64,000 nucleotides of DNA, taken from contig CAYVOI010000001.1 of assembly GCA_964453605.1 (NCBI GenBank), positions 548,095-612,094 of the forward strand. The letters run 5' to 3'. The translations under genes and the position numbers were made by a program. The notes under the pieces were generated by a model. It made no database searches. It saw nothing but the letters and a program-made list of their open reading frames with translations, and was not told where the DNA came from. This stretch comes from an uncultured Gammaproteobacteria bacterium (lineage in GTDB: Bacteria > Patescibacteriota > Patescibacteriia > Veblenbacterales > UBA10138). This document shows, in pieces, positions 9,330 to 32,700 of this stretch (positions are counted from its first letter, which is position 1; each line of letters starts with the position of its first letter).

Positions 9330-9332
9330 AGG

Positions 9333-9725
9333 TTAAGCGGTAGCGGGTTTAGTCTTGTACACCTTGAGGTGGCGGAGAAACTCGGCGTTCAGGCGGTTCT
9401 TTGGCAACATGCCGCGCACGGCGTGGCGAACCAGGTCCGCCGGGCTCTTCTCAAACTCTTGCCGCAGCGTGGTGGTCTTTATGCCGCCGGGGTAGCCGCT
9501 AAAGCGGTGGTAGAGTTTTACGTCCAGCTTGGTGCCGGTAAAACGGAGTTCAGCCGCATTCACCACGTGCACTTCTACGTTTGGCACCACGTTCGGCGCA
9601 AAGTTAACTGTGCGCTTACCCCTGAGGTGGTTAGCCACCTCAGTCGCGACGCGGCCTAACGACTTGCCGTTGGCATCAACTACGATGACGTTCGGTTTCT
9701 TCAACATAGGTTTATACAAATTCAA
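9333..9725 (-). CDS. rplM: 50S ribosomal protein L13.
   Basis: KPNVIVVDANGKSLGRVATEVANHLRGK...MLPKNRL, the L13 signature. Confidence 0.9.
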   Translation of the reverse strand: MNLYKPMLKKPNVIVVDANGKSLGRVATEVANHLRGKRTVNFAPNVVPNVEVHVVNAAELRFTGTKLDVKLYHRFSGYPGGIKTTTLRQEFEKSPADLVRHAVRGMLPKNRLNAEFLRHLKVYKTKPATA

Positions 9726-10062
9726 CCTGTACCATGGCGGCCCGGTCGCCTTGGCGCAACCCTAGTTTCGTTATGCGGGTGTACCCACCAGCCCGAGACT
9801 TGTAGCGAGGACCAAGCACCTCCAGCACCTTGCGCACCGCGCCTTCGGTCGGTAGCCTCTGGAGCAAGAGCCTACGGTGAGCAAGTGATGGTTCCTTACC
9901 GACCGTAACCAGGCGTTCCACGTACGGCCGTACCACACGGGCCTTAGCCTGCGTGGTCTGCACCTTTTCGTAGAGCACCAGGCTCTGCGCCAGGTTCTTC
10001 ACCAACGCACGACGAGGGCCAACCTTACGGTCAAGTATTTTGCCTGATTTGCGGTGACGCAT
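9712..10062 (-). CDS. rplQ: 50S ribosomal protein L17.
   Basis: MRHRKSGKILDRKVGPRRALVKNLAQSLVLYEKVQTTQAKAR...GGYTRITKLG, the L17 signature. It overlaps rplM by 14 nt. Confidence 0.9.
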   Translation of the reverse strand: MRHRKSGKILDRKVGPRRALVKNLAQSLVLYEKVQTTQAKARVVRPYVERLVTVGKEPSLAHRRLLLQRLPTEGAVRKVLEVLGPRYKSRAGGYTRITKLGLRQGDRAAMVQVEFV

Positions 10063-10080
10063 AGGTAGGTTCCGGAACGT

Positions 10081-10872
10081 TTACTCTTTCTTGGGACGGC
10101 CACGCTTTTTAGCAGGCTTAGGTTCGGCTGGGGTACTCTGAGCTTCAACCTCAGTAGAACTATCGGTCGTAACCATAGACTCTGCCACTGGCTGGCCAGC
10201 TACCACGGCAAAGTGGTCTATGAGTAACGAACTTGCGTACTTTACCGCCTCCAAGGGGTTCAAAGACCCGTCAGTTTCCACATCCAGGCTCAGCTTATCA
10301 AAGTTAGTCATCTGCCCTACGCGGACGTTCTCCACGGTGTAGCCAACCCGATGTACTGAGCTGTAGAGCGCATCAACTGCAATGGTACCTATCTCAAGCT
10401 TCTCTTTCTCGCGGGACTCAACTGGTACGTACCCCCTCCCCTGCTCCACCACAAACTCCACCTCGAGACTAGCTTTTTTATCGGTCAGGGTGGCGAGGTG
10501 CAAATCTTTGTTCATAACTTCAACTTCCCTGTTCTCAGAAATATCACCAGCGGTAACTTCGCGCTCCCCGCTCACCTTGAGGTTAAGCTTGGTGGGCAAC
10601 GCCGAGTGGCTTCTGAGCCTCAGCTGTTTAACGTTCAAAAGAAAATCAACCACGTCTTCCTTAACCCCCGGGAGGGTGGAAAACTCGTGGTCAACTCCGG
10701 TTATCTTCACTGCGGTCACAGCCGCGCCAGGAAGAGACGACAGCAGCACCCGCCGTAAGGCATTACCGAGAGTGGTGCCGTAGCCTGGGTAGCACGGTTC
10801 TATAGTGATACGCGCGTGGTTGGGACCAAGCGTTTCGCTGGTCACGTGTTGTGGAAGTGGTAGTGCCTCCAT
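10081..10872 (-). CDS. rpoA: DNA-directed RNA polymerase alpha subunit, N-terminal-domain-only form. The alpha-CTD is replaced by an acidic linker and an AT-hook-like KRGRPKK tail.
   Basis: RpoA NTD motifs (ITIEPCYPGYGTTLGNALRRVLLSSLPGAAVTAVKI..GV.HEFSTLPGV.EDV). The protein is only 263 aa and ends ...TPAEPKPAKKRGRPKKE. Confidence 0.85.
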   Translation of the reverse strand: MEALPLPQHVTSETLGPNHARITIEPCYPGYGTTLGNALRRVLLSSLPGAAVTAVKITGVDHEFSTLPGVKEDVVDFLLNVKQLRLRSHSALPTKLNLKVSGEREVTAGDISENREVEVMNKDLHLATLTDKKASLEVEFVVEQGRGYVPVESREKEKLEIGTIAVDALYSSVHRVGYTVENVRVGQMTNFDKLSLDVETDGSLNPLEAVKYASSLLIDHFAVVAGQPVAESMVTTDSSTEVEAQSTPAEPKPAKKRGRPKKE

Positions 10873-16614: not shown

Positions 16615-17550
16615 TTACTTCACCAACTCTCCTATAACCACAAAGCGCTTAAAGGCGGTACCAATAGGCCACGAGGTTTGGAGCGTTACCAGCTTACGCT
16701 TGTAGGCGTACTGCCCCAGGTAGCTAACGTCGGTAGCGGCTACCACCTTGGCCTCGAATACACGGTAGGTAAACGCTTGCCCTTGTGCGTTCGTCAGGAT
16801 AATATCAGCGCCAATTTTGATTTGCGGTAGCACCGCGAACACGGTACGGTAGCGCCCGTTGCTCCACCAGTAGTCACTGGAGTGACCAAAAATGTAGTCG
16901 TTGCCTAAGTTGCCCGGGTTAGCGCTCCCGGGGTAGTGCACCACACCGTTCTTAAGCCCCGCCTGGAACGCGTCCTCCGTAGCTTGCGTCACGTACACCA
17001 CGGGCACCTGCAGCCCGAGGCTTGAAACCGTAAGTGTGTTGGCAGGAACACCGGGACTCGCTGCCAAGGTTACTGCAGCTGGGCTAGGGTTAGTCAGCGT
17101 AGCAATAAAGCTGGCCGCAGTACTAAGGCTAGGTACGCGGTAGCGGTGCGCGTCAGTTGGGTTTACGTACCACAGCTCACCACGTGTCTCGACCGCCACA
17201 AAGAGCTTACCCTTCTGCTGTTTGGCAAAGGCGAAGTTAATAGCCTGGCGGTCCGTGGGCTTAGTGTAGTTCACCAAACCATCACCTACAGGTATACGCG
17301 CCAAGTTAGCATTGGTAATGCCAATGACTTTCGGGGTAGGCAGTGGTACTGGTGCAGTGGGAGCTACGGCCAAAGCTGCCGTGGTAGTCTGCTTAGGCGT
17401 TTCGGCCTGCGCTACCGCGGGCGGCAACGAAAATGAACCTGGGGCTACGGCGTAGCGCACGTTGAGCCACAGCGACTGCGCGTTGAGAAGCACAGCCGCC
17501 ACCACACTCAACCCAAGAGCTGCTGCCAGTACTCGCCAGGGGCTAGTCAT
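16615..17550 (-). CDS. Secreted sortase-fold protein with Ser in place of the catalytic Cys (TLQTS instead of TLxTC). Its N-terminal half shares a module with the C-terminal region of the adjacent LPXTG giant.
   Basis: Signal peptide, then sortase landmarks in order: VHYPGSANPGNLGN...IFGHSS (the PGxxGN + GH loop), KLVTLQTSWP (position of TLxTC) and FKRFVV (catalytic Arg). The Ser codon is TCG, two substitutions away from any Cys codon. Confidence 0.6.
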   Translation of the reverse strand: MTSPWRVLAAALGLSVVAAVLLNAQSLWLNVRYAVAPGSFSLPPAVAQAETPKQTTTAALAVAPTAPVPLPTPKVIGITNANLARIPVGDGLVNYTKPTDRQAINFAFAKQQKGKLFVAVETRGELWYVNPTDAHRYRVPSLSTAASFIATLTNPSPAAVTLAASPGVPANTLTVSSLGLQVPVVYVTQATEDAFQAGLKNGVVHYPGSANPGNLGNDYIFGHSSDYWWSNGRYRTVFAVLPQIKIGADIILTNAQGQAFTYRVFEAKVVAATDVSYLGQYAYKRKLVTLQTSWPIGTAFKRFVVIGELVK

Positions 17551-17577: not shown

Positions 17578-20500
17578 TTAACCCTGGCTCCACTCGCGGC
17601 CTACGGTAGTAAAGCCAATGGCCATAATGCCGAGAAGGGGCAACCCGAAGAGTATATCGCTCGGGAAACCAGTACGCGGCAAGCTAGTTGTACTCTCACC
17701 CAAAACTTTAGGAGCTGGCGGGTAGCAGGCTGAAATGGTAGAAAGTGCAACATTGCCAGCGCGGTAGCCAAGGCTAATATGCCTAAGTTCATCGTCTGAC
17801 ACACACTGACCTAAAGACTCAGGAATAAGTGAGGCCTCGCTGGTGGCTGGTACGAAGTAGCGCTTGCTGTCGTCAGGGCTCACGTACCAGAGCTCACCCT
17901 GGGACTCGGTTTGCAAGAAGAGCTTACCCCGCTGTGCCGCGGCGTAAACCATATCAACTGACGTGCTCGGCAGTGTAGTAGGCTGGTTAGCTACCGTAGT
18001 CAAGCCCAAGGGTATCTTGGCTAAGTTAGCATCTGATAGCGGAGCCGCAAAGGCCCTGAGCACATCATAGGTTGCCTTATCAGCTGGCAAGTAGAAGCGC
18101 TGGTTGGTGCCTGGAGCCAGGTACCACGCGGTGTTACCTGCCTGACACTGCAGGGCGAACCGGCCGCTGTACTTTTGTGCTACAGCGGATTTAGGTGAGG
18201 TCACCTTAGCCGCCTCAGCTGGCAAGTTGATACAAGCCGCTCCTAAAACCTGCGGCGGGGGCGTACCACCAGAGGTTACGGTGGTAACTTCGGTGGCAGT
18301 ACTCTTTTGGGCAAAGCAGCCCTTGGTGTTGTAGAAGCGAGCGTAGATGGTTTTGGAACCAGCACCTGAGCTCAAGCTCCACGACACTACTGGCGCCAGC
18401 GGCACGGAAGCCTGTGGGGTGAAGCTCTCCGTATTACTCAACACGAGGCTCGTAACATCAGCACCGTAGGTTAGGTTAAGCGCGGCCGTGGAGCCTGCTA
18501 CGCCACCAGCCGGAATAGTGAGGTTGACCGTGGCGGGGTCAACTCGGTTAATGGTTGAATCACAGTCCGTGCCGCCACCTCCCCCACCACCGCCACCTCC
18601 CCCACCACCGCCGGTGTCGTTGTTAGTTACCGTGCAGGTTTTGGTCTCGCCGGCGGCAATAGTGCCCTCACAGCCAGCGCCCAAAGTCTTGGTGTACCCA
18701 CTCTGGGTTGTTTCATCTACGCTGTAGGAGCCCGGCGATAGCGTTACCGTGACACCATCTTCACTGCCACGGAACGAAGTTCGCGAGACATTAGTACCGC
18801 TCACGGTGAGCGAAAAATCATCAGCCACGCGGCTGCCACCGTGGTCGTTAATAACGTGCTTTTTCACAATCAGCGTAGCTTGAGTTGGCACTGAGGCTAC
18901 GTCGCTGTTGGTTATAGTACAAGTTTTACTGTCGCCTGCTACCAAGGTAACGTCGCCGTTACTGTTACAGTCACCAGTCAGTGAGCTCTGCACGTAGCCC
19001 GAGGGCACGGTGTCCTCGCTCACCTGGTAGGTGCCAGGCGGCAGCGTGTAGCCTACGCCAGTTGTAGAACCGGCACTGGGGGAATTCGCTACCTCAGCCA
19101 CGCCGCTTTTTACGTGCAAGGTGAAATCGGCCGCGGCCTTGGAGCCGCCGTGGGTATTTATAACCTGCTTCTTTACGAGTAAGGTAGCGGTAGTGGGTGG
19201 CGGAGTCTGGTCGGCGTTAACAATGGTACACGTTTTGGTCACACCACTTTCTATGGTTACGGTACCGTCGGTAGCACAATCACCACCTACGCCACTCTGG
19301 AGGTAGTTGGTAGGTAAGGGGTCTTCGCTCACTGTGTAATTCCCCGGCGCGAGCACGTACGTGGTGCCAGTGGCGCTGCCAGCCGCGGGACTGCCAGTAA
19401 CGTCAGTGCCACCGCTCTCAACGTGCAGGGTAAAATCGGCTGCCGTCTTGGTGCCGCCGTGGGTGTTCACCACCTGCTTCTTGACAATGAGCGTACCAGG
19501 AACGGGCGGCGTCAACTGGTCGTCGTTCGTAATGGTGCAGGTTTTAGTCACGTTTGACTGAACAATCACGGACCCATCAACGTCACAATCGCCAGCTATG
19601 CCGGTCTTAACGTAGCCACTCGGGGCCACGTCTTCGCTGACCATGTAGGTGCCGGGCGCCAGTGTGTAGGTTACCCCAGTCTCAGATCCCGCTTGGGGGC
19701 TACCGGTAACGTCGGCCAAACCCTGCTTCACGTGTAGCGTAAAGTCGGCGGCATGTTTGGTGCCCGTGTTGTTATTGATCACGCGCTTCTTCACCATGAG
19801 GGTACCAGCTATGATCGGGCTGACATTGGTGATGGTACAGGCTTTGGTATCACCTGCGATAAGGGTAATAGAACCGTTTGAGGCACAGTCACCCGCCACG
19901 CCTTGGCTGGTATAACCACCGGTCGGTGCGTCTTCGCTCACCTGGTAGGTACCCGCGGGCAGGGTGTAGGTTACCCCAGCCTCAGACCCTGCTTGTGGGC
20001 TGCTAGAGACGTCGCTGCCAGCAGCTTTCACGTGCAGCCTGAAGTCGGCCGCGGTCTTTACACCGCCACCGCTGTTATCGACGTGCTTCTTCACCACCAG
20101 CGTAGCTAAGTCCCCCACACAGATGGTTGAGCCCGTGGTGTGCACGGTGTTACTGTCGACCCAGGTACCGAAGTTATTGTACTCAAAGGAACTGGTATGG
20201 CCGGTATTGGCAATGTCAAACGGACCACACAGACTCGGGGTTTTTACGGTCGCAGTCCACGTGATGGTACCCGTTTCGTTTGGAACTAACGTGTTAGCGT
20301 TCCAGAGTAATGTGCGGGTGCTCGAGGTATAGAGCGGTGCGCTGCCGTAGCCCGGAGTAATATTGCTGGAGTTAGTCGAGCTTACAAAAGTCAGGAGTGG
20401 ATCCACCACGTCCTTCACCTTCACTCCCCCACCAGTACAGTCAGCTGTACCAGTGTTCTTGATGTTTAACGTGTACGTTAGGACATCACCCGGACTAGCT

Positions 20501-21864
20501 GTAGTCGCACTGACAGATTTAGTAATTGTTAGTGTGCACTGCGTGGCCGGGGGTACATCATTATTCGTGACCGTACAGGTTTTGGTTTCACCGGCGGCTA
20601 TGGTCCCCGAGCAGTCCGTACCGAGCGAGGTGGCGTAACCAGCCGCGGCTGCCTCGCCAACGCTGTAGCTCCCCGGGTCCATCGTCAATGTCGTACCAGT
20701 CTCAGAGCCAGCAAACGAGCTACTCGGTGACACGTTCTGACCTGCGACCGTGAGGGTAAAATCGGCTGCCGCCTTAGAGCCGCCACTATCGTTCACCACG
20801 TGCTTTTTCACCACCAACGTAGCCGTAGTCGGGCAGCTGGTAGAGGTCACAGGCAGAGTGGCGTGCACATCTTCAGCATGGTTCACACCGTCAGACACCG
20901 TCAAGCTAAGGGTATAGCTACCGGGGGCGTAGGTATGCGGGGCAGTTGCCGTCAGGTGCTGGCCGGCACTGGTGCCGTTCTTAGTGGTAACCGTATCGGC
21001 GCTGCCGTCCCCCCAGCTGAAGGTAAACGTCAGGTTCTTGCCGTCAGGGTCGTGTGCCGTCGCGGTCCACGTGCCAACACCACAGCTGAGTGAACCGCTA
21101 AAACTATCTAGTACGATGGTTTCAGGGGTATCGTCGTTCGTGACGGTGCAGGTTTTGGTTTCACCGGCGGCAATAGTACCAACGCAATCCGCGCTGAGGC
21201 TCTTCTGGTAGCCGGGCGTAGTCGCCTCATCCACGCTGTAGCTGCCGGGGCTAAGGGTGAGCGTAACACCAGACTCGCTGCCCGTTACCGTACTCTGCGG
21301 CTGCACGTTAGTACCCGTAACATTAAGGGTAAAATCGGAAGCTTGTTTGTTGCCACCGTTATCGTTAATAACGTGCTTTTTAACAATCAAGCTGGCCGTG
21401 GTGGGGGCGCAGGTGCCGACGGTTACACTGGTAGAACCACTCACGTGCTCGGTCAGGTTGGCTACATCATACACCGTTACCTGGACGGTGTAGGTGCCGG
21501 CCGCGGCGTAGGTATGAGTTGGGCTTATGGTGTGAACCTGCATCAACCCGGGGTTAGTGTGGGTAATGCTCTGCAGTGGGCTGGCATCGCCCCAGCTAAT
21601 ATCAAAACGCAAGCTAAGCCCGCCATCATGATCGATAGCAGCTATAGTCCACGAGCCGCTGGCACAGGTGGTGGAGCCTGAGGGTGCGGTAAGGGCCGTA
21701 AGTTCGAGCGAACTAGGTTCACTGGTGTTACCAGCGCTACTGGGTACGGCGCCTAGGCCAACGGTAATAGCAACCGAGGCTAGGGCAATGGCCACTAGTA
21801 CGCCGAGGTGGACCTTGGCACTGGGTAAGCTTTGAGCGGGTTGGTTGTGAGGCATAGTGTTCAT
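17578..21864 (-). CDS. Giant (1428 aa) LPXTG-anchored surface protein. It comprises a signal peptide, 2 PKD domains, about 9 tandem ~95-aa CnaB/prealbumin-like repeats, a DUF11-like repeat, a (Gly)14 linker and a C-terminal module, ending in LPRTG + TM + charged tail.
   Basis: Repeats of LVVKKHV.N..GG.K...DF.L.V.G......G...G....L.PG.Y.V.E....GY......C......G..K.C.ITN and PKD motifs (WGDGS...HTYA.AGTYT). The C-terminus ...ESTTSLPRTGFPSDILFGLPLLGIMAIGFTTVGREWSQG is a classic cell-wall sorting signal. Confidence 0.8.
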   Translation of the reverse strand: MNTMPHNQPAQSLPSAKVHLGVLVAIALASVAITVGLGAVPSSAGNTSEPSSLELTALTAPSGSTTCASGSWTIAAIDHDGGLSLRFDISWGDASPLQSITHTNPGLMQVHTISPTHTYAAAGTYTVQVTVYDVANLTEHVSGSTSVTVGTCAPTTASLIVKKHVINDNGGNKQASDFTLNVTGTNVQPQSTVTGSESGVTLTLSPGSYSVDEATTPGYQKSLSADCVGTIAAGETKTCTVTNDDTPETIVLDSFSGSLSCGVGTWTATAHDPDGKNLTFTFSWGDGSADTVTTKNGTSAGQHLTATAPHTYAPGSYTLSLTVSDGVNHAEDVHATLPVTSTSCPTTATLVVKKHVVNDSGGSKAAADFTLTVAGQNVSPSSSFAGSETGTTLTMDPGSYSVGEAAAAGYATSLGTDCSGTIAAGETKTCTVTNNDVPPATQCTLTITKSVSATTASPGDVLTYTLNIKNTGTADCTGGGVKVKDVVDPLLTFVSSTNSSNITPGYGSAPLYTSSTRTLLWNANTLVPNETGTITWTATVKTPSLCGPFDIANTGHTSSFEYNNFGTWVDSNTVHTTGSTICVGDLATLVVKKHVDNSGGGVKTAADFRLHVKAAGSDVSSSPQAGSEAGVTYTLPAGTYQVSEDAPTGGYTSQGVAGDCASNGSITLIAGDTKACTITNVSPIIAGTLMVKKRVINNNTGTKHAADFTLHVKQGLADVTGSPQAGSETGVTYTLAPGTYMVSEDVAPSGYVKTGIAGDCDVDGSVIVQSNVTKTCTITNDDQLTPPVPGTLIVKKQVVNTHGGTKTAADFTLHVESGGTDVTGSPAAGSATGTTYVLAPGNYTVSEDPLPTNYLQSGVGGDCATDGTVTIESGVTKTCTIVNADQTPPPTTATLLVKKQVINTHGGSKAAADFTLHVKSGVAEVANSPSAGSTTGVGYTLPPGTYQVSEDTVPSGYVQSSLTGDCNSNGDVTLVAGDSKTCTITNSDVASVPTQATLIVKKHVINDHGGSRVADDFSLTVSGTNVSRTSFRGSEDGVTVTLSPGSYSVDETTQSGYTKTLGAGCEGTIAAGETKTCTVTNNDTGGGGGGGGGGGGGGTDCDSTINRVDPATVNLTIPAGGVAGSTAALNLTYGADVTSLVLSNTESFTPQASVPLAPVVSWSLSSGAGSKTIYARFYNTKGCFAQKSTATEVTTVTSGGTPPPQVLGAACINLPAEAAKVTSPKSAVAQKYSGRFALQCQAGNTAWYLAPGTNQRFYLPADKATYDVLRAFAAPLSDANLAKIPLGLTTVANQPTTLPSTSVDMVYAAAQRGKLFLQTESQGELWYVSPDDSKRYFVPATSEASLIPESLGQCVSDDELRHISLGYRAGNVALSTISACYPPAPKVLGESTTSLPRTGFPSDILFGLPLLGIMAIGFTTVGREWSQG
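18571..18612 (-). repeat. In-frame (GGN)14 simple-sequence tract encoding a poly-Gly linker.
   Basis: Plus strand reads gcc gcc acc tcc ccc acc acc gcc acc tcc ccc acc acc gcc, which is poly-Gly on the coding strand. The artefactual poly-Pro ORF 18488..18727 on the opposite strand reflects the same tract. Confidence 0.8.
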
Positions 21865-22011
21865 AATAAAGTATTTAGGTGGGGCAGCATTCCCACCACC
21901 TTTAAAGTTAATAAAATAACCCTTTACCTTAGCATGGAGCTAAAAACCTGTCAACCCCTACAAGCTAAAGCGGGGTGGGGGAACCCCCACCCCGCTTGGA
22001 ACCTAAGTACG

Positions 22012-25000
22012 TTATGGCAGCCGAGGTTTCGGCAGGTTCAGGGCCGGACACTTCATCAGGTTTATCCAGCGCTTGGTGGTCTTGTACACGTACCCGGTGG
22101 GTGTGTGGTCGTTCGGTAAACCGTAGAGCACCCACGGGCTCAAAATTTCGGCGTTGTGATCAAGCTGGTACTTCTTGACCGCGTTGTAGGTAGCTCGGTT
22201 GTACACCCCAGTGACCTTTAAGGGCCCATAGCCCAGCTCGTTCAAGAACTGTTGCAGCCGTTTGACATCAGCTGCGTTATTGCGTCGCCCAAGCTTAATG
22301 TAGGTGTGGATGTACTCTTTGCACATGGCAGTTGATTCACCGAGCACCTGGCCGGTAGGGCCAGTCGACACACCTAGGACTTGCGGCACAGCCACACTCT
22401 TGTCAGCCGCACAACCAGTGACCTCGCGGAACCTAACGTAGATAGTGCTGGTTCCAGCTGGCACAAACATGGTGCGGGTAGCGGTTGGCGCTTCAAAGCT
22501 GGCGCCGGCAAAGTCAGCGTGTACGCTGTAGGCTACCTGAACCACCGTTGCAGGGTAGGTTAGGTTGAGTGTTGCCACGTCCCCTACCAAGCTCGCCAAG
22601 GTTACTCCAATGCTCGCTGGTGTAGGTGTGGAACAGACAAACGGGCTACCGCCTCCACCACCGCCTCCACCTCCCCCACCACCGCCGTTTGAGGCTACGG
22701 TAAAGGACGTGCTGTCAGTATTGTTCTGGCTGTTGTCATCGTTCTGGCTAGCAATGGTGGCGCTGTTAGTAACCGTGCTACCAGCTGAGCTTGTAACCGA
22801 CACCACAATGTGCAGCGACTTGCTCTCGCCGTTGGCGAGCGCACCAACCGTCCAAACACCCGTGGTAGTGTTGTAGGCACCAGCGCCGTCGTCAGACACG
22901 TAGGTTACACCGGCCGGAAGCACGTCGGTCATGGTCACGCCACTGGCCGCGGCTGGACCAGCGTTCGCCACCGTCAGGGTGTACGTTACCTGGTCGCCCT
23001 GGTGCGGCGCAAAGCTGCTCACCGTTTTGCTGGCCGAGAGGTCAGCGTTGGTAGGTTGGACCGGTACAAACGTGTTAGTTACCGTACAGGTTACCGCTTC
23101 ACCGGCCACCACGGTCACGCTGCCGTTTTCAGTACAGCCGTCACCGTAGCTCACCTGCCAGGTTACCCCTGGGTTTTGCTCCTGCACCTGGTAGGTGCCG
23201 GCTAGCAAGGTGTACGGGGTACCAGGTGTACTCTGACCCGCCGCTGGCGAACCAGCTACATCACCATCAGCCAAAACGTGAATGCTGAAATTGGCGGGCA
23301 GGTCGCCCTCGCCACCACCAGAAACTACCTTAACCACGCGGAGGGTGCCCTTAGTTGGGCTAAAGGTATTGGTAATGGTGCAGGTAGCCACCTCACCCAA
23401 AGACAGGGTGATGCTACCGTTCTCAGTACAATCACCGGCGAAACTTGCCACGTAGTCAGCTGGGCCGCCGCTCTCCGACACGGTGTAGGTACCAGCGCTA
23501 AAGGTGTTCTCGCTACCACTTACCACCTGGGTTTCACCCACAAACAGGTTGAAGTCGGCAACTTGAGCCGTGCCACCCGCCACCACCTTAGTTACGGTGA
23601 GCTTAGGGGCAATGTCATTGTTGGTAATGGTGCAGGTAGCCTCTCCACCATTGGCCACGGTAACTTCGCTACAGCCATCGTAGCTAACGTCGTAGCCAGT
23701 GTTGGGCAGTTCAGTAACCGTGTAGGTGCCAGCATCAACCGTCAGGTCGTTCTGGCCATCAGCCTCAAAGGCTTGGGCCTCACCATTGTTCACGCTGAAG
23801 GAAAAGTCGCTCGAGCTAGCAGTGCCACCGTTGTCGTTCGTAACATGCTTGACCACGTGGAGGGTACCGGGCTGGTCGTTGTTCGTTATGGTACAGACCT
23901 TGGTCTCCCCCACGGCTAGAGTTACCGAGCCCTCACCGTCACAGTCGCCGGAGTAGGTAGCAGCGTAGCCCGCCGGGCCACCGCTCTCCGACACCGTGTA
24001 GGTGCCAGCGCTAAAGGCGTTGCTCTGGCCGCTCGTTACCTGCGTGTCCCCGACAAACAGATTGAAGTCAAACACTTGGGCAGTACCACCGTTGTCGTTC
24101 GTTACCACCTTAATAACCGTTAGGCCGGGTGCCACGTCGTTGTTCGTTATGGTACAACTGGCTACCTCACCCAACGACAGAGTGATGTTACCCTGAGGGT
24201 CACAGTCACCACTGAAGGTGCCAACGTAGCCGGCGCCGGGGTCTGCCTCGCTCACGGTGTGCGGACCAGCAAGTAACGTCTGCTGCTGGCCGGAGGTAAC
24301 CTGGTTACCATCAACCATGAGGGTAAAATCAGTCACTTGCTTGGTGCCACCGTCGTTGTTCGTAACCACCTTGGTCACGGTCAGCTTGGGAGCAATATCG
24401 TCATTCGTGATGGTACAGCTCTTAACGTCGCCTAAACCCAAAGTAACGCTACCTTCGGCGTTACAGTCGCCACTGAAGGTAGCCGTGTAACCAGCCGAAC
24501 CGACCTCGCTCACGATGTAGGTACCGGCGTCAAACGTGTTCTGCACACCGCTGGTAACACCAGCCTCGCCAACGAACAGCGGGAAGTCTGACACCTGCTT
24601 GGTGCCGCCGTCGTTGTTCACTACTACTTTGGTCACGGTCAGCTTAGCGGCTACGTCGTCGTTCGTTATGGTACAAACGGCCACATCACCAACGGCCAGA
24701 GTGACCTGGCCTTGGGCGTTACAGTCGCCACTGAAGGTAGCCGTGTAGCCTGACTGGTTCGTCTCAGACACCTGGTACGTACCAGCGTTAAACCCATTCT
24801 GAGCCCCTGAGGTAACCGAGCTCTGTCCCACAAACAGTGGGAAGTTGGACACTTGCCTAGTGCCACCGTTGTTATTGATAACAACTTTAGTAACGGTGAG
24901 TTTGGGTTGAATGTCGTTATTCGTTATGGTGCAAGACTTAACATCGCCCAGGCTCAGGGTTACGTGACCTTGCGCGTCACAGTCGCCGGAGTAGGTGGCA

Positions 25001-26487
25001 GCGTAGCCCACTGCACCGGTCTCCCCTACCGTGTAGGTACCGGCGTTAAAGCCGTTCTCTGCCCCTGAGGTAACAGAAGTTTGGCCTACGGTGAGTGGGA
25101 AGTCCTGAACAGTCTTGGTACCGCCGTTGTCGTTCGTCACAACCTTGGTCACCGTCAGCTTGGGTTGAATGTCGTTATTGGTGATACTACACGTTACCGT
25201 CTGTCCAAGCGACAAGGTAACCTGGCTACCAACTAAGTTTCCGCCATTACAGCTCCAGCTGCCAGCACTGTAGCCAGTCACGTTAGACTCGGACAAGGTG
25301 TAGGCTACCCCGGCTTGCACGGTGTGGAACGTGGTCGAGTTACCGAGGTCGCTGAAACCGCCAGTACCCGTAGCCGTTAAGGTCCAGTCCGCCGGAGTCT
25401 TACTCCCACCATTGTCATTGGTCACCTGCTTTACCAATTTCAGAGTGGGAGCAATGTCATTATTCGTTATGGTACAGCTCTTGCTCTGGCCAGCCACCAC
25501 GGTAACGTTACCGTTGGCATCACAATCACCTGAGTAGGTGGCGGCGTAACCGGCCGAACTGGTTTCGCTCACCACGTAGCTACCGGCGGTAAAGGTGTTG
25601 GTAGCCCCCGAGGTAACCTGGGTCTGCCCCACGAACAAGGGGAAGTCTGACACCTGCTTGGTGCCACCGTCGTTGTTCGTAACCACCTTGGTCACGGTAA
25701 GCGTGCCAGTGGTGGGGGCATTGTCGCTGTTCGTTATAGTACAGGTCTTAGCCTGACCTGAAGCAATGGTACCAGAGCAGCCAGCGCTCAAGGTTTTGGT
25801 GTAGCCGTTAGTTGCAGCCTCATCAACACTGTAGGTGCCTGAGGTAATGTTCTGACCAAACGAAACGCCCACGGTTGTGCCAGGGTTCTCGGCACCCGCG
25901 AAGCTTGATTGGTTAAAGGTTAAACCGGTCGAACCGGTAACGTTCATGGTAAAGTCCGAAGCTACCTTGGTACCACCATTGGTGTTCACTACATGCTTAA
26001 TCACGTTAATGGTGGCGGGTGGAATAATAGCGTTCACATCAACCTGAGCTAGGTCAGCACCGTCTTGACCTGTTGGCTGGCCATGGTACACCATCACCCG
26101 GATGGTGTAGGTACCCGTAGCTGGGTAGGTGTGGGTAGCAGTCCAGTTGGTGGTGTAAACCTTGGTGCCGCTGTTACAGGTCGTGCTTGAGAGCGTGGCG
26201 GGTTCAGGCGTAGCTAGTAAGCCATTCGCAAGGTCCCAGGATAGTACGGAAACGCTCTGCCCGGCTGGACAGGTACCCTTGTACGGGTTAGCACTAGCAG
26301 AACCACTCAGCGTGATAGCAAACGGCGCGACCGCGGCAGAGCTGACGGTAATAGCGTACCCGCTCACAATAGCGTTAGCAGTGGTAGGAACTACGAGCTG
26401 TAAGCCAAGTACCAGGGCTGACAGTGCAGCCCCGCGGAAGCGGCGTAGACTCTGGCTGGTGTGTACCATAGGCGTGTGGGTTAGCAA
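22012..26487 (-). CDS. Giant (1491 aa) secreted surface protein, paralogue of 17578..21864. It comprises a PKD-like domain, about 11 CnaB/prealbumin-like repeats, a DUF11 repeat, a (Gly)13-14 linker, a shared post-Gly module and a C-terminal PG_binding_1 (peptidoglycan-binding) domain. It has no LPXTG.
   Basis: The same ~95-aa repeat family (LTVTKVVTNDNGGTK.V.DF.L.VG...VTSG....F.AGTY.VSE....GY.AT.SGDC...G.VTL..G..K.CTITNND). The C-terminal segment NAADVKRLQQFLNELGYGPLKVTGVYNRATYNAVKKYQ matches the PG_binding_1 helix bundle. Confidence 0.8.
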   Translation of the reverse strand: MLTHTPMVHTSQSLRRFRGAALSALVLGLQLVVPTTANAIVSGYAITVSSAAVAPFAITLSGSASANPYKGTCPAGQSVSVLSWDLANGLLATPEPATLSSTTCNSGTKVYTTNWTATHTYPATGTYTIRVMVYHGQPTGQDGADLAQVDVNAIIPPATINVIKHVVNTNGGTKVASDFTMNVTGSTGLTFNQSSFAGAENPGTTVGVSFGQNITSGTYSVDEAATNGYTKTLSAGCSGTIASGQAKTCTITNSDNAPTTGTLTVTKVVTNNDGGTKQVSDFPLFVGQTQVTSGATNTFTAGSYVVSETSSAGYAATYSGDCDANGNVTVVAGQSKSCTITNNDIAPTLKLVKQVTNDNGGSKTPADWTLTATGTGGFSDLGNSTTFHTVQAGVAYTLSESNVTGYSAGSWSCNGGNLVGSQVTLSLGQTVTCSITNNDIQPKLTVTKVVTNDNGGTKTVQDFPLTVGQTSVTSGAENGFNAGTYTVGETGAVGYAATYSGDCDAQGHVTLSLGDVKSCTITNNDIQPKLTVTKVVINNNGGTRQVSNFPLFVGQSSVTSGAQNGFNAGTYQVSETNQSGYTATFSGDCNAQGQVTLAVGDVAVCTITNDDVAAKLTVTKVVVNNDGGTKQVSDFPLFVGEAGVTSGVQNTFDAGTYIVSEVGSAGYTATFSGDCNAEGSVTLGLGDVKSCTITNDDIAPKLTVTKVVTNNDGGTKQVTDFTLMVDGNQVTSGQQQTLLAGPHTVSEADPGAGYVGTFSGDCDPQGNITLSLGEVASCTITNNDVAPGLTVIKVVTNDNGGTAQVFDFNLFVGDTQVTSGQSNAFSAGTYTVSESGGPAGYAATYSGDCDGEGSVTLAVGETKVCTITNNDQPGTLHVVKHVTNDNGGTASSSDFSFSVNNGEAQAFEADGQNDLTVDAGTYTVTELPNTGYDVSYDGCSEVTVANGGEATCTITNNDIAPKLTVTKVVAGGTAQVADFNLFVGETQVVSGSENTFSAGTYTVSESGGPADYVASFAGDCTENGSITLSLGEVATCTITNTFSPTKGTLRVVKVVSGGGEGDLPANFSIHVLADGDVAGSPAAGQSTPGTPYTLLAGTYQVQEQNPGVTWQVSYGDGCTENGSVTVVAGEAVTCTVTNTFVPVQPTNADLSASKTVSSFAPHQGDQVTYTLTVANAGPAAASGVTMTDVLPAGVTYVSDDGAGAYNTTTGVWTVGALANGESKSLHIVVSVTSSAGSTVTNSATIASQNDDNSQNNTDSTSFTVASNGGGGGGGGGGGGGSPFVCSTPTPASIGVTLASLVGDVATLNLTYPATVVQVAYSVHADFAGASFEAPTATRTMFVPAGTSTIYVRFREVTGCAADKSVAVPQVLGVSTGPTGQVLGESTAMCKEYIHTYIKLGRRNNAADVKRLQQFLNELGYGPLKVTGVYNRATYNAVKKYQLDHNAEILSPWVLYGLPNDHTPTGYVYKTTKRWINLMKCPALNLPKPRLP
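22648..22689 (-). repeat. In-frame (GGN)13-14 tract encoding the poly-Gly linker of the second giant paralogue.
   Basis: Plus strand reads acc gcc tcc acc acc gcc tcc acc tcc ccc acc acc gcc. The poly-Pro in ORF 22565..22876 (+) is the opposite-strand artefact. Confidence 0.75.
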
Positions 26488-26608
26488 ATCGGTTAGCCAC
26501 TAAGTTTATGGCTAAACGTAGTTAAAGATTATGCAGGTAAAGCGTTACACTAGTAATGTAACACACGACCTTACACTGAACCAAAAAGGTTGTCAAGTGG
26601 ATAATTAA

Positions 26609-26778: not shown

Positions 26779-29700
26779 CTAGTGGGCTTGGTGATTGCCC
26801 TTATCAAGGTTCTTGGCCGACACCCGAAGTACAACTGTGGAACCAACTTTGATTTCGTAGCTGGCGGTATCTTTCGTACCAGGTTCACCAAAATCGGTGA
26901 AGACAAAGCTAATGGTAGCACCTGGAACGCCATTGTAACTGCCAACCCCAGTTGCGGTGTAGGTATTGAAACCATTAGCCGTACTCTTTGGTGGCGCGGG
27001 GTTACCGGTCTTAGTGCAGGTAACTGAAGTTAAGCTATCGAGGTGGAACCGCTGAGCGTTACCCGTTTTATCGTTCCAATTAATCTCCAGGTTGTTCGGG
27101 TTCTGGGTCAAATCGCAGTGTAGCTCAAACCCATGGGTAACCCGTACACCCCCGAGCGGCAGGTCAGTTCCGGTTTTGGCAGTGAATATGCTGCCACCAC
27201 CAGTCATCCGCCGAGCAATGATTTTAACGGTAATAGAGCCGGCCTCGCTGGTTACGCCGTTGGCTGGGGTGATGTCAGTGCCGAACGAGTCGGTGCCGTG
27301 ACCAGCTACGTTGAAGGTGGTGTCGGTGCTGATTACCACCGTACAGGTCCAAGTCCAGGTCTCACCTACGTCCATGATACCGTTACCGTTGGTATCACCA
27401 CTCTGGTAGGCGCAAATGCCAGCTGGAGTGCTCGACGTTTTGGTCATGGTTTCGGTGTGGGCGCCGTAGGTCAGTACGACCGAAGGGTTAGTGAGTGGTA
27501 CCTGACCGTCGTTGGTGTCGGTAATGGTCAGGGTAACGTTCTCGCCAGGCGCAACTTCTTGCGGGTTAGAAGTTATCGAGATGGTGGTGTGTGGCTTCTT
27601 CAGAGCGTTGGTAATGGTCTTCGAAGCCGTTTGATTGGCAACCACAGTTACCCCGCCGCTACCGCTGACAGACCAGGCAATGCCTGGGTTAGCTTCAGTA
27701 ACCGTGTAGGTCCCAGGGATTAGCGGGCTCAGGTGGATGGTGGTAGGAGCTTGCAGCACACCATCAACCACGGTGAAGGTAATATTGTGACCCGAGGGGT
27801 ACGAAGGACCAGTGACCGTTATGGTGAAGGTTTGGTCAACATTCACCAAACCCGCGCTGGGGTACTGGCTTACATCCACGGCCTTGGTAACATCGAGTGC
27901 GCCAGCCACATAGAGCTTGTTAGCATTCGCACTGTCGCCCGACAGGCTGTCACCCGAGGCGCGGGTCAGGCTGACGCCGCCCACTGAGAAGGTGGTAGTA
28001 GCGTGAATGTCTACACTACCCGGAGTCGAGGAATTTATCTGCACCGAGCAGGAACCGCCCGTAGTGGTGCAGGTGTTGCTACCGCTGGTGGGGATGAAGT
28101 CAGCACCGGCGGTGTTGTTGAGCAAGGTGAAGGTTACCAAGGTACCGTTCGGAGCCGGCACCCAGCCGCTACCCGCGTTCTGCGACACCGTAGCAGTAAT
28201 GGTGTGGGGGCTGCCGATGTTGTTGGTGGCGGTCAACGGTGAGAGGACTATCTTGGCGTCCACGTAGGTCTTAGTCGCTGGGCCACTGTTGCCAGCCGTA
28301 CCGTTAGTTTGCAGCTTGAAGGTTACGCCGTTCACCACTACCTGTGAACGAGCGGTAACCGTGAACACACCGGCAGTTGAGGAGTTCAGGGTAACGCTGC
28401 ACTGCCCCGCGGCATTCACGCCGTCGGTACAATCAGACGCGTCGAAGCTGGTTGGTGTGGGGCTCACTATGGCGTTCGCCAAGGTGCCAGCGGGCACGGG
28501 GCCGAAGCCGCTCCCGGTGTCCTGCTCAACCGTTACCGTAAAGGTGTGCTGGTGGCCAACTTCGTTGGTAGCAGAGCCTGGGGTAATGGAGATGCGGGCG
28601 TTTACGTACGTTTTTTGTGCAGCAGCGCTGTCACCCGACAAACCGTCGCCTGTCGCGCGGGTCAGGCTGACGCCGCCCACCGAGAAGGTGGTAGTAGCAT
28701 CAACCGTGTTGCTGCCAGTACTGGTTGACGTGATGGTGATAGAACACAGGCCACTGGCATTGGTAACGCATGAGCTTGGCCCCACAAACGTGGCTGAGCC
28801 TGACGTAATGGAGAAGTTCACGGTTACGCCCGCGGCGTCAGTTACGCCGCTACCGTCGTTCTTGGTAACATGGGCCGTAATAACGTGGTTCTGCCCCACG
28901 GCGTTGGTCGCGGTCAGAGGCGACAGGGTTATGGAGGCATCCGCCCAGGTCTTGTGCGTATCACCGCTATCACCCGACAGGCCATCGCCAGTCGCTCGGG
29001 TAATAGAGACACCGCTCACGGTAATGGTGGTTGAGGCGTGCACTGTGCCAGTGCCAGCCGAAGTCGAATGGACAATGATAGTACACTGACCGTTAACATC
29101 CGTGGTGCCCGAGGTGCAGGTGCCACCAGAAATAGAGCCCGTACCAGTGATACCACTACTGACGGTTTCGCCCGCAGCCGCCACCAAGCCCGCACCATCA
29201 CCCAAATCTTTCTTAACGGTTACGGTAAAGGTGTGGTCGTGACCAACTTCGTTAGTACTATCACCAGTGATACTAATCTTGGCATCCACCCAGGTTTTGG
29301 TTGGCTTAGCGCTGTCGCCCGACAAACCGTCACCCAAAGCACGGGTGATAGATACACCACCCACCGATACCGTGGTCGAAGCGCTCACCGTACCCACGCC
29401 GGCGGTAGCTGAGTTTACGATAATCGTACACTGGCCGCTGGCATTGGTGGTACCCGTCTGACAGGTGCCCGTACCGGTGAGTGAGCCCGTACCGGTGATA
29501 CCGGGCGTCACGGTAGCGCCCGACACTGGGCCAAAGGTGCCGGTGCCGGGGTCGGAATTCACAGTTACCGTAAAGGTGTGAGGGTTACCGACTTCGTTGG
29601 TCGAGCTCTGATCGACGAGGATCTGCAGGTCGACGTAGGTCTTTTGTGCATCAACGCTGTCACCTGACAAGCCGTCACCGGTGGCGCGGGTCAGGCTGAC

Positions 29701-32700
29701 GCCGCCCACCGAGAAGGTGGTAGTAGCGTGGATGGTGTTAGCACCAGTGCCAGCGGCATTGATTTGCACCGTGCACTGTCCGCTGGCGTTGGTGACGCAG
29801 GTATTAACACCACCGACAAAGGTAGCGGTACCCGAAGTTACCGAGAAGGTAACGGTTACACCATTCGCGGGCACTGAGCCCGTACCTGGATTCTTAGTGA
29901 CCGTGGCAGTAATGGTGTGGGACTGGTTAACGGCGTTGGTGGCTTGGCCAGGGGTAATTTGAATGTTGGCGTCGACCCACGTCTTGGTAGCCGGGCCGCT
30001 GTTGCCGCTCAGGCCGTTGGTAGTGCGCGACATGGACACGCCGCCTACCGTAACGCTGGTAGAAGCGTTCACCACTGTTACACCAGCTACAGCCGAGTTC
30101 AGGTCAACGGTGCAGGAACCAGAGCCTGCGGCGGTTACACAGCTCGGGGCCGAAAGGCTACCTGGGCCTGAGGCAATAGAGAAGTTGATGGTGGTGCCAT
30201 CGGCGGCATTGGCCCAGCCCGAACCGTTGTTCACATCCACGTGACCGGTGAAGGTGTGAGCGTGGTTAACTTCGTTCGTGGCGTCCTGAGCAATAGAGAT
30301 CTTGGCGTCCACGTAGGTCTTGGTAGCGGGGCCGCTGTTCGGCGCACTGCCGTTGGTTTGCAGCTTAAAGGTAACGCCACCGACTATAATGGTTGAACGG
30401 GCGGTAATGGTGAAGACGCCGGCTGAGCTTGAGTTGATTGTTACCGTACACTCACCATTCACATCGGTGCCAGCGTTACAGTCGCTAACATTGAGACTCG
30501 CGGCCGGGCTTACGATGGCGTTCGCAATGGCGCCGTTTACTGGCTGGAAGCCAGAGCCATCGCCGTTGTCGGCCTCAACTTTCACGGTGTAATCGTGCGG
30601 CTTGCCAACCTCGTTAGTGGCGCTCGGCGGGTTGATGCTAATGCGTGCGTTCACCCACGTCTTGGTGGCCTGGGCGCTGTCGCCCGAGAGATTATCGCCC
30701 AAAGCTCGGGTAACCGACACGCCGCCCATGGTAACCGTGGTGGTAGCGCTCACCGTGCCAACGCCAGTCGTGGCTGAGTTTACAATAATGGTGCACTGGC
30801 CGGAAACGTCGGTAGTGCCAGTTTCACACGTACCAGCGCCCGTGAGCGAACCAGCGCCCGTGATACCTGGGGTAACGGTCTCACCAGCTGCGGCTACCCA
30901 GCCTGTGCCGGGGTTCTTCATCACGGTAACCGTAAAGGTGTGGCTATTACCAACCGCGTTGGTGCTATTCTGGTCAATGGATATCTTCGCATCTACGTAC
31001 GTCTTGGTGGCAGGGCCGCTGTTGTCGCCCTGGCCGTTGGTCTGGAGCTTGAACTGTACGCCGCTCACCACTACGGTGGAGCGAGCAATAATGGTGAACA
31101 CGCCAGCTGAGCTGGAGTTTACCACCACGTCACACTGGCCGTTTACATCCGTACCGGCGTTACAGTCGCTAACGTTTAGGCTAGTGGCGGGAGTTACCAC
31201 GGCGTTAGCAATGGCGCCCTGAATCGGCGTCCAGCCGCTGCCGGTGTCCTGCTCAACCGTTACGGTAAAGGTGTGGGACTGACCGACTTCGTTGGTGGAA
31301 GCCTGCGGAGCAATACTAATGCGCGCATTGACCACGCCAAAGGGTTCGCAATCGGAATCATCCCCAAGGTAGTTGCTGTTGCCAGCTACGCTCGCACGGT
31401 AGGCGTACGAGCCAGTAGTAAGCGGCGAGCTGTCGGCCGACTTAGCTGCCGAACCTTCTGTACCGTTGTTCGCCACCGATGCGCCTTGAGAACAGCTGTC
31501 GCTGTAGGCGCTGGTCAGGGTGAAGGAAGGAGTGGGTACGGTGAACCCTGCCACGCCGCCGGTTACGGTAGCGGTGTCGTGGGTTACTGAGCCAACCGCC
31601 ACGCTGGTGCCGGTAATATCCTGGTGGGCGGCGTTGTGTACATTCGTAGTTACCGTGAGTTGCGCCTTGTTCACCGTGAACAGCTCACAAGCACCGGTAG
31701 CGCCCAGGTAGTTTTCGTTACCTGCTACCTCGCCGCGGTAGGCGTACGTGCCAGCGCCGAGCGCGGCACTGTCGGCCGACTTAGCTGCACTGCCTTCCGT
31801 ACCATTGTTCGCTACCGCCGCACCTTGGGAACAGGTCTCAGTGTAGTTGCTGGTCAAGGTGAAGGTAGGAGTCGGCACCGGGAAGCCTGCTACGCCGCCG
31901 GTTACGGTGGCGGTGTCGTGCATTATCGAACCCAGCGGCACGCTCGCGTTCGTCTTGTCAGCGTGCGCAGCGTCGTGAACAATCGTTGAAACACTGAGCT
32001 GCGCCTTGTTTACCGTCAAAGGTTCGCAAGGAGCGGTTGAACTGTTGTAGTTGGCATCACCAGCGTACACAGCCTTGAACGAGTACTGGCCAGCCCCCAG
32101 CGGCCCTTCCGAGCTCGAGGGGTGAGCAATGCCCGAGGCGTCAACTGCCACTACACCAGCGCCGCTCCCCTGCCCTTCACAGGTGTTACCCGTGTAGAAG
32201 CTAAAGGTTACGTTGCCAGTTGGGATAATTGAACCAACCTGGCCGGTGAGTGTGGCCTTGTCGTGCACCGTGGTGCCAAGGTCTACCGAGGTCACTACGG
32301 CGTGGGTGGCATCGTGAATGTCGGTCGCAAGCTGGGTGTTAGCCTTGTTCACGTGCACGGTTTCACAAGCCGCCGTTGAGCCGTTGTAGTTACTGTCGCC
32401 CGAGTAGCTGGTGAGGAACGAGTAGTCGCCAGCCGCCAGGTTGTTGTGCGAGCTCGACTCGTTGCCCAGAGCCACGGTTTCGTCCGCGTGGGTGCCGGTA
32501 CAGTTGTTGCTGCTGTAGAACTTGTAGGTCAAGGTACCCGTGGGAGCGATGCTACCAACCTGGCCTGTAACGTCGGCCTTGTCGTGAATAGAAGAGTTGA
32601 GCGCGATGGAAGTACCCTGCACGTCAGCGGTGTGGTTGCTGCCCAGGTGAATGGCGGTAGAGGCTTGCGTGTCAGCCTTGCTTACCGTGAAGTGTTCACA

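Follow-up and report, generated by a model that had tools for sequence, protein, structure and literature searches.

The window analysed here is a stretch of 64,000 nucleotides (positions 548,095 to 612,094 of contig CAYVOI010000001.1, assembly GCA_964453605.1) from a genome deposited as an uncultured Gammaproteobacteria bacterium and placed by GTDB in the Patescibacteriota (Veblenbacterales, UBA10138). Two adjacent genes, both on the minus strand and at the positions recorded in the list of open reading frames (ORFs), code for giant, apparently secreted proteins, referred to as P1 and P2 (Table 1). The two share a stalk of the same kind and end differently, P1 in an LPRTG sorting signal followed downstream by the gene for a sortase homologue, P2 in a PG_binding_1 domain. 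We consider it probable, from the sequence comparisons described below, that P1 and P2 are old paralogues within a patescibacterial family of stalked, Sec-exported surface proteins with exchangeable anchors, which have been shuffled at junctions carrying the motif VLG. Both proteins are probably adhesin-like fibrils.

Common architecture and its breakpoint

An earlier note on this DNA, made from the letters alone, had ascribed to both proteins PKD, tandem prealbumin-like repeats, DUF11, a linker of 13–14 glycines and a conserved module behind it. Most of this is borne out. The repeats belong to the Pfam family SpaA_2, with seven stretches in P1 and eleven in P2; DUF11 scores 46.6 bits in P1 and 108 bits in P2; the linker is Gly14 in P1 and Gly13 in P2; and the post-Gly module is conserved. 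The attribution of PKD holds for P1, where two stretches each are recognised by PKD_4 (35 bits, cut-off 27) and by PKD (30.3 bits, cut-off 23.5), and fails formally for P2, the head of which remains below the Pfam gathering score (PKD 18.9 bits vs 23.5, PKD_4 15.4 bits vs 27). The motif THTYPATGTYT of the P2 head aligns with the C-terminal motif THTYxAxGTYT of the genuine PKD in P1, which makes it likely that this head is a degenerate relative of PKD. The architectures had been called identical, and they are not: DUF11 is internal in P1 and terminal in P2, the numbers and types of repeat units differ, and P1 has two PKD domains and, between post-Gly module and sorting signal, a 175-residue module of two GELWYV repeats that the note passes over.

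The two proteins were cut into 18 SpaA_2 units (7 in P1, 11 in P2), which were all compared with each other. Type A comprises units 1, 2 and 7 of P1 and unit 1 of P2, type B units 3–6 of P1 and unit 11 of P2, while type C is an expansion specific to P2 (units 2, 4–8 and 10, with 59–73% identity); units 3 and 9 of P2 stand apart. The order is collinear in the two proteins, with type A first and type B late. The best identity between a unit of P1 and one of P2 is 58%, and values within one protein reach 73%. The unit comparison indicates that the two arrays expanded independently. A Lys in the first strand, a Glu in an xSE motif and a terminal Asn are invariant in all 18 aligned units (the Asn partly by construction of the unit boundaries), and every unit has two invariant Cys. 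This pattern suggests disulfide stabilisation of the units and possibly isopeptide stabilisation.

Pairwise alignment locates the point at which the homology ends: the homology of P1 and P2 extends from the head across the poly-Gly tract and the module behind it, for about 90–100 residues beyond the glycine runs, and stops at a common P-Q-V-L-G, after which the anchors are different. In the post-Gly region, identity is 39% in an alignment of 120 columns that takes in part of the Gly run (E = 2e-6), and 32% over the module proper. A Cys near each end of the module is conserved among homologues. For P2, the AlphaFold2 (AF2) model is a six-strand beta-sandwich with a predicted local distance difference test score (pLDDT) of 52–70, having been modelled almost from a single sequence, and Foldseek returned weak matches of this model to Fn3 and BIg domains (E of about 1e-2, probability up to 1.0). 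Searches of Pfam and NCBIfam, even at E up to 10, gave no family for the module.

Related loci and proteins used for comparison are designated by L numbers and four-digit P numbers; all relatives recovered come from metagenome-assembled genomes of Patescibacteria (candidate phyla radiation, CPR), with labels such as Patescibacteria, Doudnabacteria, Veblenbacteria or Saccharibacteria. Their linkers vary considerably. Orthologues have Gly12 (L003), Gly10 (P0001), PTPPPVCTSNCGGGGGGGG (L005), GGGGSGGGGGGG (L007) or PPPPPPPGCSGNCGGG (L001), the variants including Gly8 after a Pro-rich stretch and Pro7 followed by GCSGNCGGG, and the family of proteins with a PG-binding tail has Gly-, Ser- or Pro-rich linkers before VLG. 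By these comparisons the linker is a low-complexity hinge or spacer and has no specific motif. The idea that poly-Gly is a slippage-prone or functional motif was rejected, as the codons are mixed (GGN) and orthologues have Pro-rich or shorter Gly runs instead. The first six Gly codons (GGC GGT GGT GGG GGA GGT) are the same in P1 and P2, and the P1 orthologue in L054 has a different codon pattern; local gene conversion in this genome may account for the shared codons, as may coincidence, the tract being of low complexity.

Junctions of the VLG type recur at the module borders, as PPPQVLG and KVLGEST in P1, as PQVLG and QVLGEST in P2, and as VLGAST across both families. This suggests that they mark module boundaries and may be the sites at which cassettes are exchanged.

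A sorting signal beside a sortase homologue without cysteine

P1 is the sole ORF in the window with an LPXTG-type end, and the LPRTG signal that had been reported for it is accompanied by a hydrophobic segment of 23 residues, FPSDILFGLPLLGIMAIGFTTVG. The LPRTG signature is kept in the orthologues from L001, L003, L004, L005 and L007. The tails that follow are more variable, close orthologues keeping G[RK][ED]W and more distant relatives having tails of the RRRK type.

The gene that begins 27 nt beyond P1 is the only sortase homologue in the window, and its product matches Pfam Sortase (PF04203) over the full profile (positions 1–125) with 69.7 bits against a cut-off of 26.6. It consists of an N-terminal transmembrane segment, one GELWYV repeat (17095–17319) and a catalytic domain (16618–17046) that contains the motif TLQTS (16672–16686). 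This motif stands where TLxTC is expected, and the protein has no Cys at all. Aligned with the class C sortase 8t28, the protein has LVTLQTSWPIGTAFKRF opposite LLTLVTCTPLGINTHRI, and a Ser thus falls at the position of the catalytic Cys of TLVTC. The His and Arg are retained (IFGHSS aligns with ITGHRG, and KRF with HRI), and both are conserved in relatives. Every NCBIfam sortase class stays below its cut-off, the best being SrtD (41.5 bits, cut-off 140) and class D (40.6 bits, cut-off 165).

The substitution is not peculiar to this genome. The pattern [TS][LVI]Q[TA]S[YW]PxGT..R occurs in 45 of the 47 related Patescibacteria sortase loci (L003–L049), nearly all without Cys, while the other two are frameshifted at this point; in relatives the Ser motif takes the form TLQTS[YW]PxGTAxxR, and TLSTC or TISTC is found only in the two most distant sortase matches. 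Of the 45 loci that have a sortase-like ORF (two of them of the Cys type), at least 33 have an ORF with a sorting-signal end within 300 nt of the sortase, and 36 of the 39 sorting-signal ORFs found in those 45 loci have LPRTG as the signal, typically preceded by VLGAxxE. A P1-like LPRTG protein together with the sortase is present in L001, L003, L004, L005 and L007. At L007 (about 5900–10600), both the P1-like gene and the sortase gene are broken by several frameshifts in a low-coverage Veblenbacteria assembly, either through assembly error or through pseudogenisation.

The conserved Ser motif and its coupling to LPRTG speak for a functional Ser enzyme with P1 as its cognate substrate. A literature search for serine sortases and for sortase substrates of Patescibacteria found no description of either in the papers covered. 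We put forward, with confidence somewhat short of even, that Patescibacteria possess a large clade of Cys-free sortases with a Ser nucleophile (TLQTS[YW]P) that are dedicated to VLGxxxE-LPRTG substrates, and that in the present lineage enzyme and P1 share an unannotated envelope-targeting repeat (GELWYV/GEAWYV), present throughout the lineage, which would bring both to the same site of the envelope. If this is true, P1 and P2 form a natural pair in which a serine-sortase anchor can be compared with a PG_binding_1 anchor on one stalk design.

The GELWYV repeat and the attachment of P1

A search with the tail of P1 unexpectedly matched a sortase (P0002). The match is due to a repeat that is present in two copies in P1, with the pattern GKLFLQxExxGELWYVxPxDxxRY...SDxxLxKIPxG, and once in the sortase of the window, where it lies between membrane anchor and catalytic domain and is 41% identical to the P1 copy. 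A profile search for GELWYV/GEAWYV yielded 3517 cluster representatives. Canonical members are a tandem pair with a TSP3 calcium-binding linker. Such pairs are found at the N- or C-terminus of secreted proteins, among them peptidases, beta-helix and CARDB proteins and one protein that combines transglutaminase-like with CAP domains. P1 has lost the TSP3 linker, which L004, L005 and L007 retain between their repeats. In L003 the post-Gly module is followed directly by VLGVTTELPRTG / PKVLGVTTELPRTG without a GELWYV pair, so the pair is optional. Neither Pfam nor NCBIfam has a model that matches the repeat, even at E up to 10. The AF2 model (pLDDT 78) shows a short helix, three strands and two further helices, and the best Foldseek match in the PDB, to a chemokine-like structure, is not significant (E = 0.5). 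From the proteins that carry it, we infer that the repeat, which is widespread in Patescibacteria, is an envelope-retention module.

The earlier view that P1 is anchored covalently by a sortase thus finds support in the gene 27 nt downstream and a difficulty in the Ser at the position of the catalytic Cys. A competing explanation, which we think rather unlikely, is that P1 is not linked covalently to the wall: the Cys-less homologue would be a non-catalytic LPRTG-binding partner or a hydrolase, and P1 would be held by its C-terminal hydrophobic helix together with the GELWYV repeats, or else be released. The missing Cys, the scores far below all NCBIfam class cut-offs and the possible interaction module shared by enzyme and substrate all fit this explanation, as does the description of sortases as cysteine transpeptidases in two reviews (PMC8225981, PMC11987632). 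It accounts poorly for the conservation of TLQTS[YW]PxGTAxxR, of the His (in GHS) and of the Arg across 45 genomes, and for the tight coupling to sorting-signal ORFs that nearly always have LPRTG, since conserved active-site neighbours and a conserved cleavage motif are expected of an active enzyme, not a decayed one. Nor does a Ser in itself speak against catalysis, as transpeptidation through a serine acyl-enzyme is chemically established in penicillin-binding proteins.

The peptidoglycan-binding tail of P2

P2 has neither an LPXTG signal nor a C-terminal hydrophobic stretch on reading of its sequence, and it ends in PG_binding_1 (PF01471), in agreement with the earlier note. The domain scores 34.7 bits in the whole protein and 39.4 bits in the tail alone (gathering cut-off 23), covering positions 2–42 of the 57 in the profile. 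The fold agrees with the assignment by hidden Markov model (HMM). AF2 gives a pLDDT of 95–98 over tail residues 110–211, and Foldseek matches the N-terminal domain of SleB (6tci; TM 0.71 normalised to the target, probability 1.0) and CtpB (4c2c; probability 1.0), with an E of only 0.06, in part because the query also held the beta-sandwich.

A search with this tail retrieved 19 proteins (P0005–P0023) that share only the last ~110 residues, at 44–57% identity. The passengers in front of the tail are chitobiase C-terminal domains, SpaA_2, or a P2-like head alone (P0009), and the tail is usually preceded by a Gly-, Ser- or Pro-rich linker and QVLGAST. Both Cys and the ending TGYVYKTTKRWIN..C..L.LP.P.LP, which runs up to the stop codon, are invariant or nearly so. 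By sequence, the P2 tail belongs to a C-terminal PG_binding_1 subfamily that is specific to Patescibacteria, and an end so fixed might act as a recognition signal in its own right. In 50 related genomes, no P2-type tail was found in the vicinity of the sortase, and the metagenomic contig L053 was the only one to show it.

Two observations on individual members of this family may be added. P0009 (331 aa) looks like a miniature P2, with a PKD-like head resembling that of P2, a Pro/Thr linker, Gly7, QVLGAST and the PG-binding tail; the SpaA_2/DUF11 stalk is absent, which suggests that this family tolerates stalks of any length. In P0007, P0009 and P0016, the residues before the PG-binding module are VLGATTELPAGC, VLGASTELPNGC or LDLPVGC, and look like a degraded VLGxxxE-LPxTG motif. 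This could fit a sortase signal that was replaced by a PG-binding cassette, and is possibly due to chance.

The tail might also be the business end of P2 and not an anchor, in which case a secreted P2 would attach to the peptidoglycan of another bacterium, host or prey, in keeping with an episymbiotic way of life of the Patescibacterium. The signal peptide of P2 looks cleavable (AxA) and the protein has no membrane or covalent anchor, the same C-terminal module occurs on small proteins with little else, and all cultivated Patescibacteria live attached to host bacteria (PMC11623550). We nonetheless regard a host-binding role as improbable, as the module occupies the cell-proximal place of the anchor in P1 and its relatives, following the same hinge, base module and VLG junction, and the variable PKD-like head is distal, an arrangement shared with other stalked adhesins.

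Age and origin of the pair

P1 and P2 are 35% identical over 1004 columns (E = 1e-102). At the DNA level, the only similarity of the two genes detected by blastn is the Gly-codon tract (39 nt, 89.7% identity). In contig L053 (JGI sample 3300044673), the end of a P2 orthologue (P0005, 76%) is followed 161 nt later by a P1 orthologue (77% over 378 aa), and a second contig of this sample has a P1-type tail (P0001, 74%). The P2-P1 tandem must thus predate the split of the two populations, and the divergence of P1 from P2, at 35% identity as against ~76–77% for each orthologue, is much older than that split. The post-Gly module of P2, in addition, shares 46% identity with its counterpart in an LPRTG-ending protein of L007 (labelled Veblenbacteria) and 32% with the one in P1. 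The comparisons support an exchange of anchors within a modular protein family.

A different origin, in which P1 and P2 do not go back to the duplication of one gene and each drew its domains (PKD, SpaA_2, DUF11, linker, base module) separately from a shared mobile pool, differs from the paralogy that we favour in degree, not in kind. Shuffling is extensive in relatives (L005 and L053 have other N-terminal domains, L053 has two DUF11, L003 starts with DUF11), and the post-Gly subtype is uncoupled from the type of anchor. Set against this are the collinear arrangement of head motif, a type A unit first, a type B unit late, Gly linker, base module and PQVLG, and the conserved tandem position, which leave independent assembly with a rather small share of our confidence. 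Very improbable is the scenario of the earlier note, in which a tandem duplication took place recently and the anchoring tail was then exchanged cleanly, for although the genes are adjacent on the same strand, have head motif, type A/B order, Gly linker and post-Gly module in common and share six Gly codons that the P1 orthologue of L054 does not have, it is contradicted by the low protein identity, the lack of DNA similarity outside the Gly tract, the separate repeat expansions, the tandem conserved at ~76% per orthologue in a relative, the greater similarity of the P2 module to L007 than to P1, the different position of DUF11 and the extra GELWYV pair. What stands of it is the exchange of anchors, within a modular family.

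Proposed organisation at the cell surface

Our favoured reading, of old paralogues with exchangeable anchors, can be put into the following picture. Both proteins would be exported by Sec, as their N-terminal hydrophobic segments indicate, and a PKD or PKD-like head would be projected on a rod of SpaA_2 and DUF11 domains, a design suggested by the domain order. A flexible Gly hinge would join the rod to a small, disulfide-bracketed base with a beta-sandwich fold, and an exchangeable anchoring cassette would follow the conserved P-x-V-L-G junction. In P1 this cassette would comprise the GELWYV pair, VLGESTTS-LPRTG, the hydrophobic stretch and the Arg, and its LPRTG would most likely be processed by the adjacent sortase homologue, leading to covalent attachment to the wall. 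The cassette of P2 would be the disulfide-closed PG_binding_1 module, which presumably holds on to peptidoglycan non-covalently. An ancient duplication or recombination would have been followed by separate repeat expansion and by module shuffling at the VLG junctions.

Several points weigh against this picture. The charged tail of P1 is weak, as REWSQG has a single Arg that is followed by Glu. The sortase homologue lacks the Cys nucleophile, and covalent anchoring of P1 is consequently less certain than for a canonical LPXTG protein. As the GELWYV repeat has no significant structural match, the case for its role in retention comes entirely from the architectures that carry it. The fold model of the post-Gly module has a low confidence, and the wall that P2 binds may be the cell's own or that of a host bacterium.

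Feature coordinates and neighbouring genes

Table 1. Features of the P1/P2 locus (window coordinates; aa, residue positions in the protein)
Feature	Position	Strand	Basis
Sortase homologue, 311 aa, start 27 nt beyond P1 stop codon	16615..17550	-	Pfam Sortase, 69.7 bits
P1, predicted secreted stalk protein with LPRTG sorting signal, 1428 aa, ATG start	17578..21864	-	ORF; Pfam SpaA_2 x7, DUF11, PKD/PKD_4
P1 sorting signal: KVLGESTTS-LPRTG, 23-aa hydrophobic stretch, REWSQG; LPRTG at 17668-17682 (aa 1395-1399)	17581..17709	-	Sequence
P1 GELWYV repeat pair (aa 1209-1383), 175 aa, bracketed by two Cys	17716..18240	-	41% identity with N-terminal module of neighbouring sortase
P1 post-Gly module (aa 1099-1200), Cys at each side; probably Fn3/Ig-like beta-sandwich	18265..18570	-	Homology to modules of P2, L001, L003, L005, L007
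P1 Gly14 linker (aa 1085-1098)	18571..18612	-	Mixed GGN codons
P1 SpaA_2 units 3-7 (aa 586-1081); 3-6 type B, 7 type A	18622..20109	-	Pfam and unit comparison
P1 DUF11 domain (aa 445-575; 445-543 in Pfam domain listing), inside repeat array after unit 2	20140..20532	-	Pfam DUF11, 46.6 bits; NCBIfam B_ant_repeat
P1 head: PKD, SpaA_2 unit 1, PKD (aa 60-340)	20845..21687	-	Pfam and unit boundaries
P1 N-terminal putative signal or anchor segment (aa 1-45), hydrophobic stretch VHLGVLVAIALASVAITVGLGAV	21730..21864	-	Read by eye from translation
P2-P1 intergenic region, 147 nt: GC-rich hairpin (~21968-21997), then TTGACA-N17-TAAGGT (~21926-21954)	21865..22011	-	Read from sequence; hairpin also in hairpin listing
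P2, predicted secreted stalk protein with C-terminal PG_binding_1 module, 1491 aa from TTG	22012..26487	-	ORF; Pfam SpaA_2 x11, DUF11, PG_binding_1
P2 C-terminal putative peptidoglycan-binding module (aa 1388-1491), two conserved Cys, ending TGYVYKTTKRWIN..C..LNLPxPxLP	22015..22326	-	PG_binding_1 HMM, AF2, Foldseek
P2 junction PQVLGVSTGPTGQVLGESTA; VLGEST identical to motif before LPRTG in P1	22327..22386	-	Sequence comparison
P2 post-Gly module (aa 1281-1367)	22387..22647	-	AF2 model, Foldseek
P2 Gly13 linker (aa 1268-1280)	22648..22686	-	Mixed GGN codons
P2 DUF11 domain (aa 1149-1261), terminal after unit 11, directly before Gly linker	22705..23043	-	Pfam DUF11, 108 bits
P2 SpaA_2 units 1-11; 1 type A, 11 type B	23074..26019	-	Pfam and unit comparison
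P2 predicted signal peptide (ends ...TTANA) and degenerate PKD-like head	26032..26469	-	Sub-threshold PKD; alignment with P1

The start of P2 is more likely the in-frame ATG at 26469 (~1485 aa) than the TTG, as it gives the protein a textbook signal peptide (MVHTSQSLRRFRGAALSALVLGLQLVVPTTANA). A promoter-like element identical to that upstream of P1 lies upstream of P2 as well (~26568–26596, minus strand). Both elements were found by eye and had been missed by a consensus promoter scan, their second hexamer being off-consensus. With a hairpin and such an element between the genes and the same element before P2, the two look like separate transcription units.

Downstream of the sortase gene follow mnmA, alaS and ribosomal protein genes. 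Upstream of P2 lies a gene for a third giant, presumably secreted protein of 3373 aa (26779–36900, minus strand), with Big_3_5 and Big_1-like repeats, an N-terminal region rich in Thr, Ser, Ala and Asp, and no recognisable LPXTG, PG-binding or GELWYV anchor. A further gene (37733–39874, minus strand) codes for a 713-aa protein in which a DUF7151 domain is followed by a long region of collagen triple-helix repeats (Pfam Collagen, 246.9 bits); an overlapping ORF of 537 aa on the other strand is probably spurious, a product of the GGN/GNN composition of the repeats.

Among the loci of relatives, the records of L005, L015, L022 and L030 are titled "uncultured Gammaproteobacteria bacterium" despite clear Patescibacteria-type sortase and LPRTG cassettes, and these labels are probably wrong.

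Comparison with known systems

Alternative anchors on paralogous proteins are, by analogy, a new instance of a known principle and an ordinary outcome of modular design. The closest comparison is with the internalins of Listeria, where InlA has an LPXTG motif and is anchored by sortase, while InlB is held non-covalently by GW modules. In both systems, paralogous surface proteins combine a homologous functional part and stalk with C-terminal anchors that are covalent in one protein and non-covalent in the other (as predicted here). They differ in the building blocks, which are SpaA_2, DUF11 and PKD here and LRR (leucine-rich repeat) and IR (inter-repeat) domains in internalins, in the use of PG_binding_1 instead of GW, in the organism, a Patescibacterium, and in the adjacent sortase without Cys. 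With this pair, a principle familiar from the surfaces of Gram-positive bacteria would hold also for Patescibacteria, whose envelope is poorly understood and whose attachment to host bacteria is believed to depend on surface proteins.

The stalks are reminiscent of the CnaB/SpaA adhesins and pilins of Gram-positive bacteria, which likewise have tandem prealbumin-like domains (Pfam SpaA_2, SpaA), a C-terminal LPXTG and an adjoining gene for a dedicated sortase. The invariant Lys, Glu and Asn of the P1/P2 units recall domains that form isopeptides. Unlike in those systems, no pilin motif or second pilin gene was seen here, the units have two invariant Cys, a Gly13–14 hinge and a base module precede the anchor, and the sortase has Ser for Cys.

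For the tail of P2, the counterparts are the PG_binding_1 domains of SleB and CtpB, to which it is related by a score above the HMM threshold and by a helical-bundle fold that matches 6tci and 4c2c. In P2, however, the domain would serve as the C-terminal anchor of a non-enzymatic giant protein, and it is set apart by an insertion (SPWVLYGLPNDHTP), by a pair of conserved Cys and by the invariant end of the Patescibacteria-specific subfamily. An anchor of this kind could serve to predict the surface proteome of these organisms.

The arrangement of P1 and sortase, finally, resembles the sortase-substrate gene pairs of classes B to F, with a gene of the sortase fold directly downstream of its presumptive substrate and a lineage-specific motif (VLGxxxE-LPRTG) that is conserved over many genomes. 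It differs from them in the Ser that replaces the catalytic Cys, the absence of any Cys, the scores below every NCBIfam class cut-off, and, in the closest relatives, the GELWYV repeat that the enzyme shares with its substrate. If active, the Cys-free clade would call for a new definition of sortases, now described as cysteine transpeptidases, and may provide a new enzyme for ligation. The GEAWYV repeat, for its part, is found in more than 3500 sequence clusters and on many secreted enzymes, and is without a model in Pfam or NCBIfam. The locus goes beyond an ordinary case of modular design through a Cys-free sortase clade coupled to LPRTG substrates, together with two unannotated modules that probably serve anchoring in Patescibacteria.

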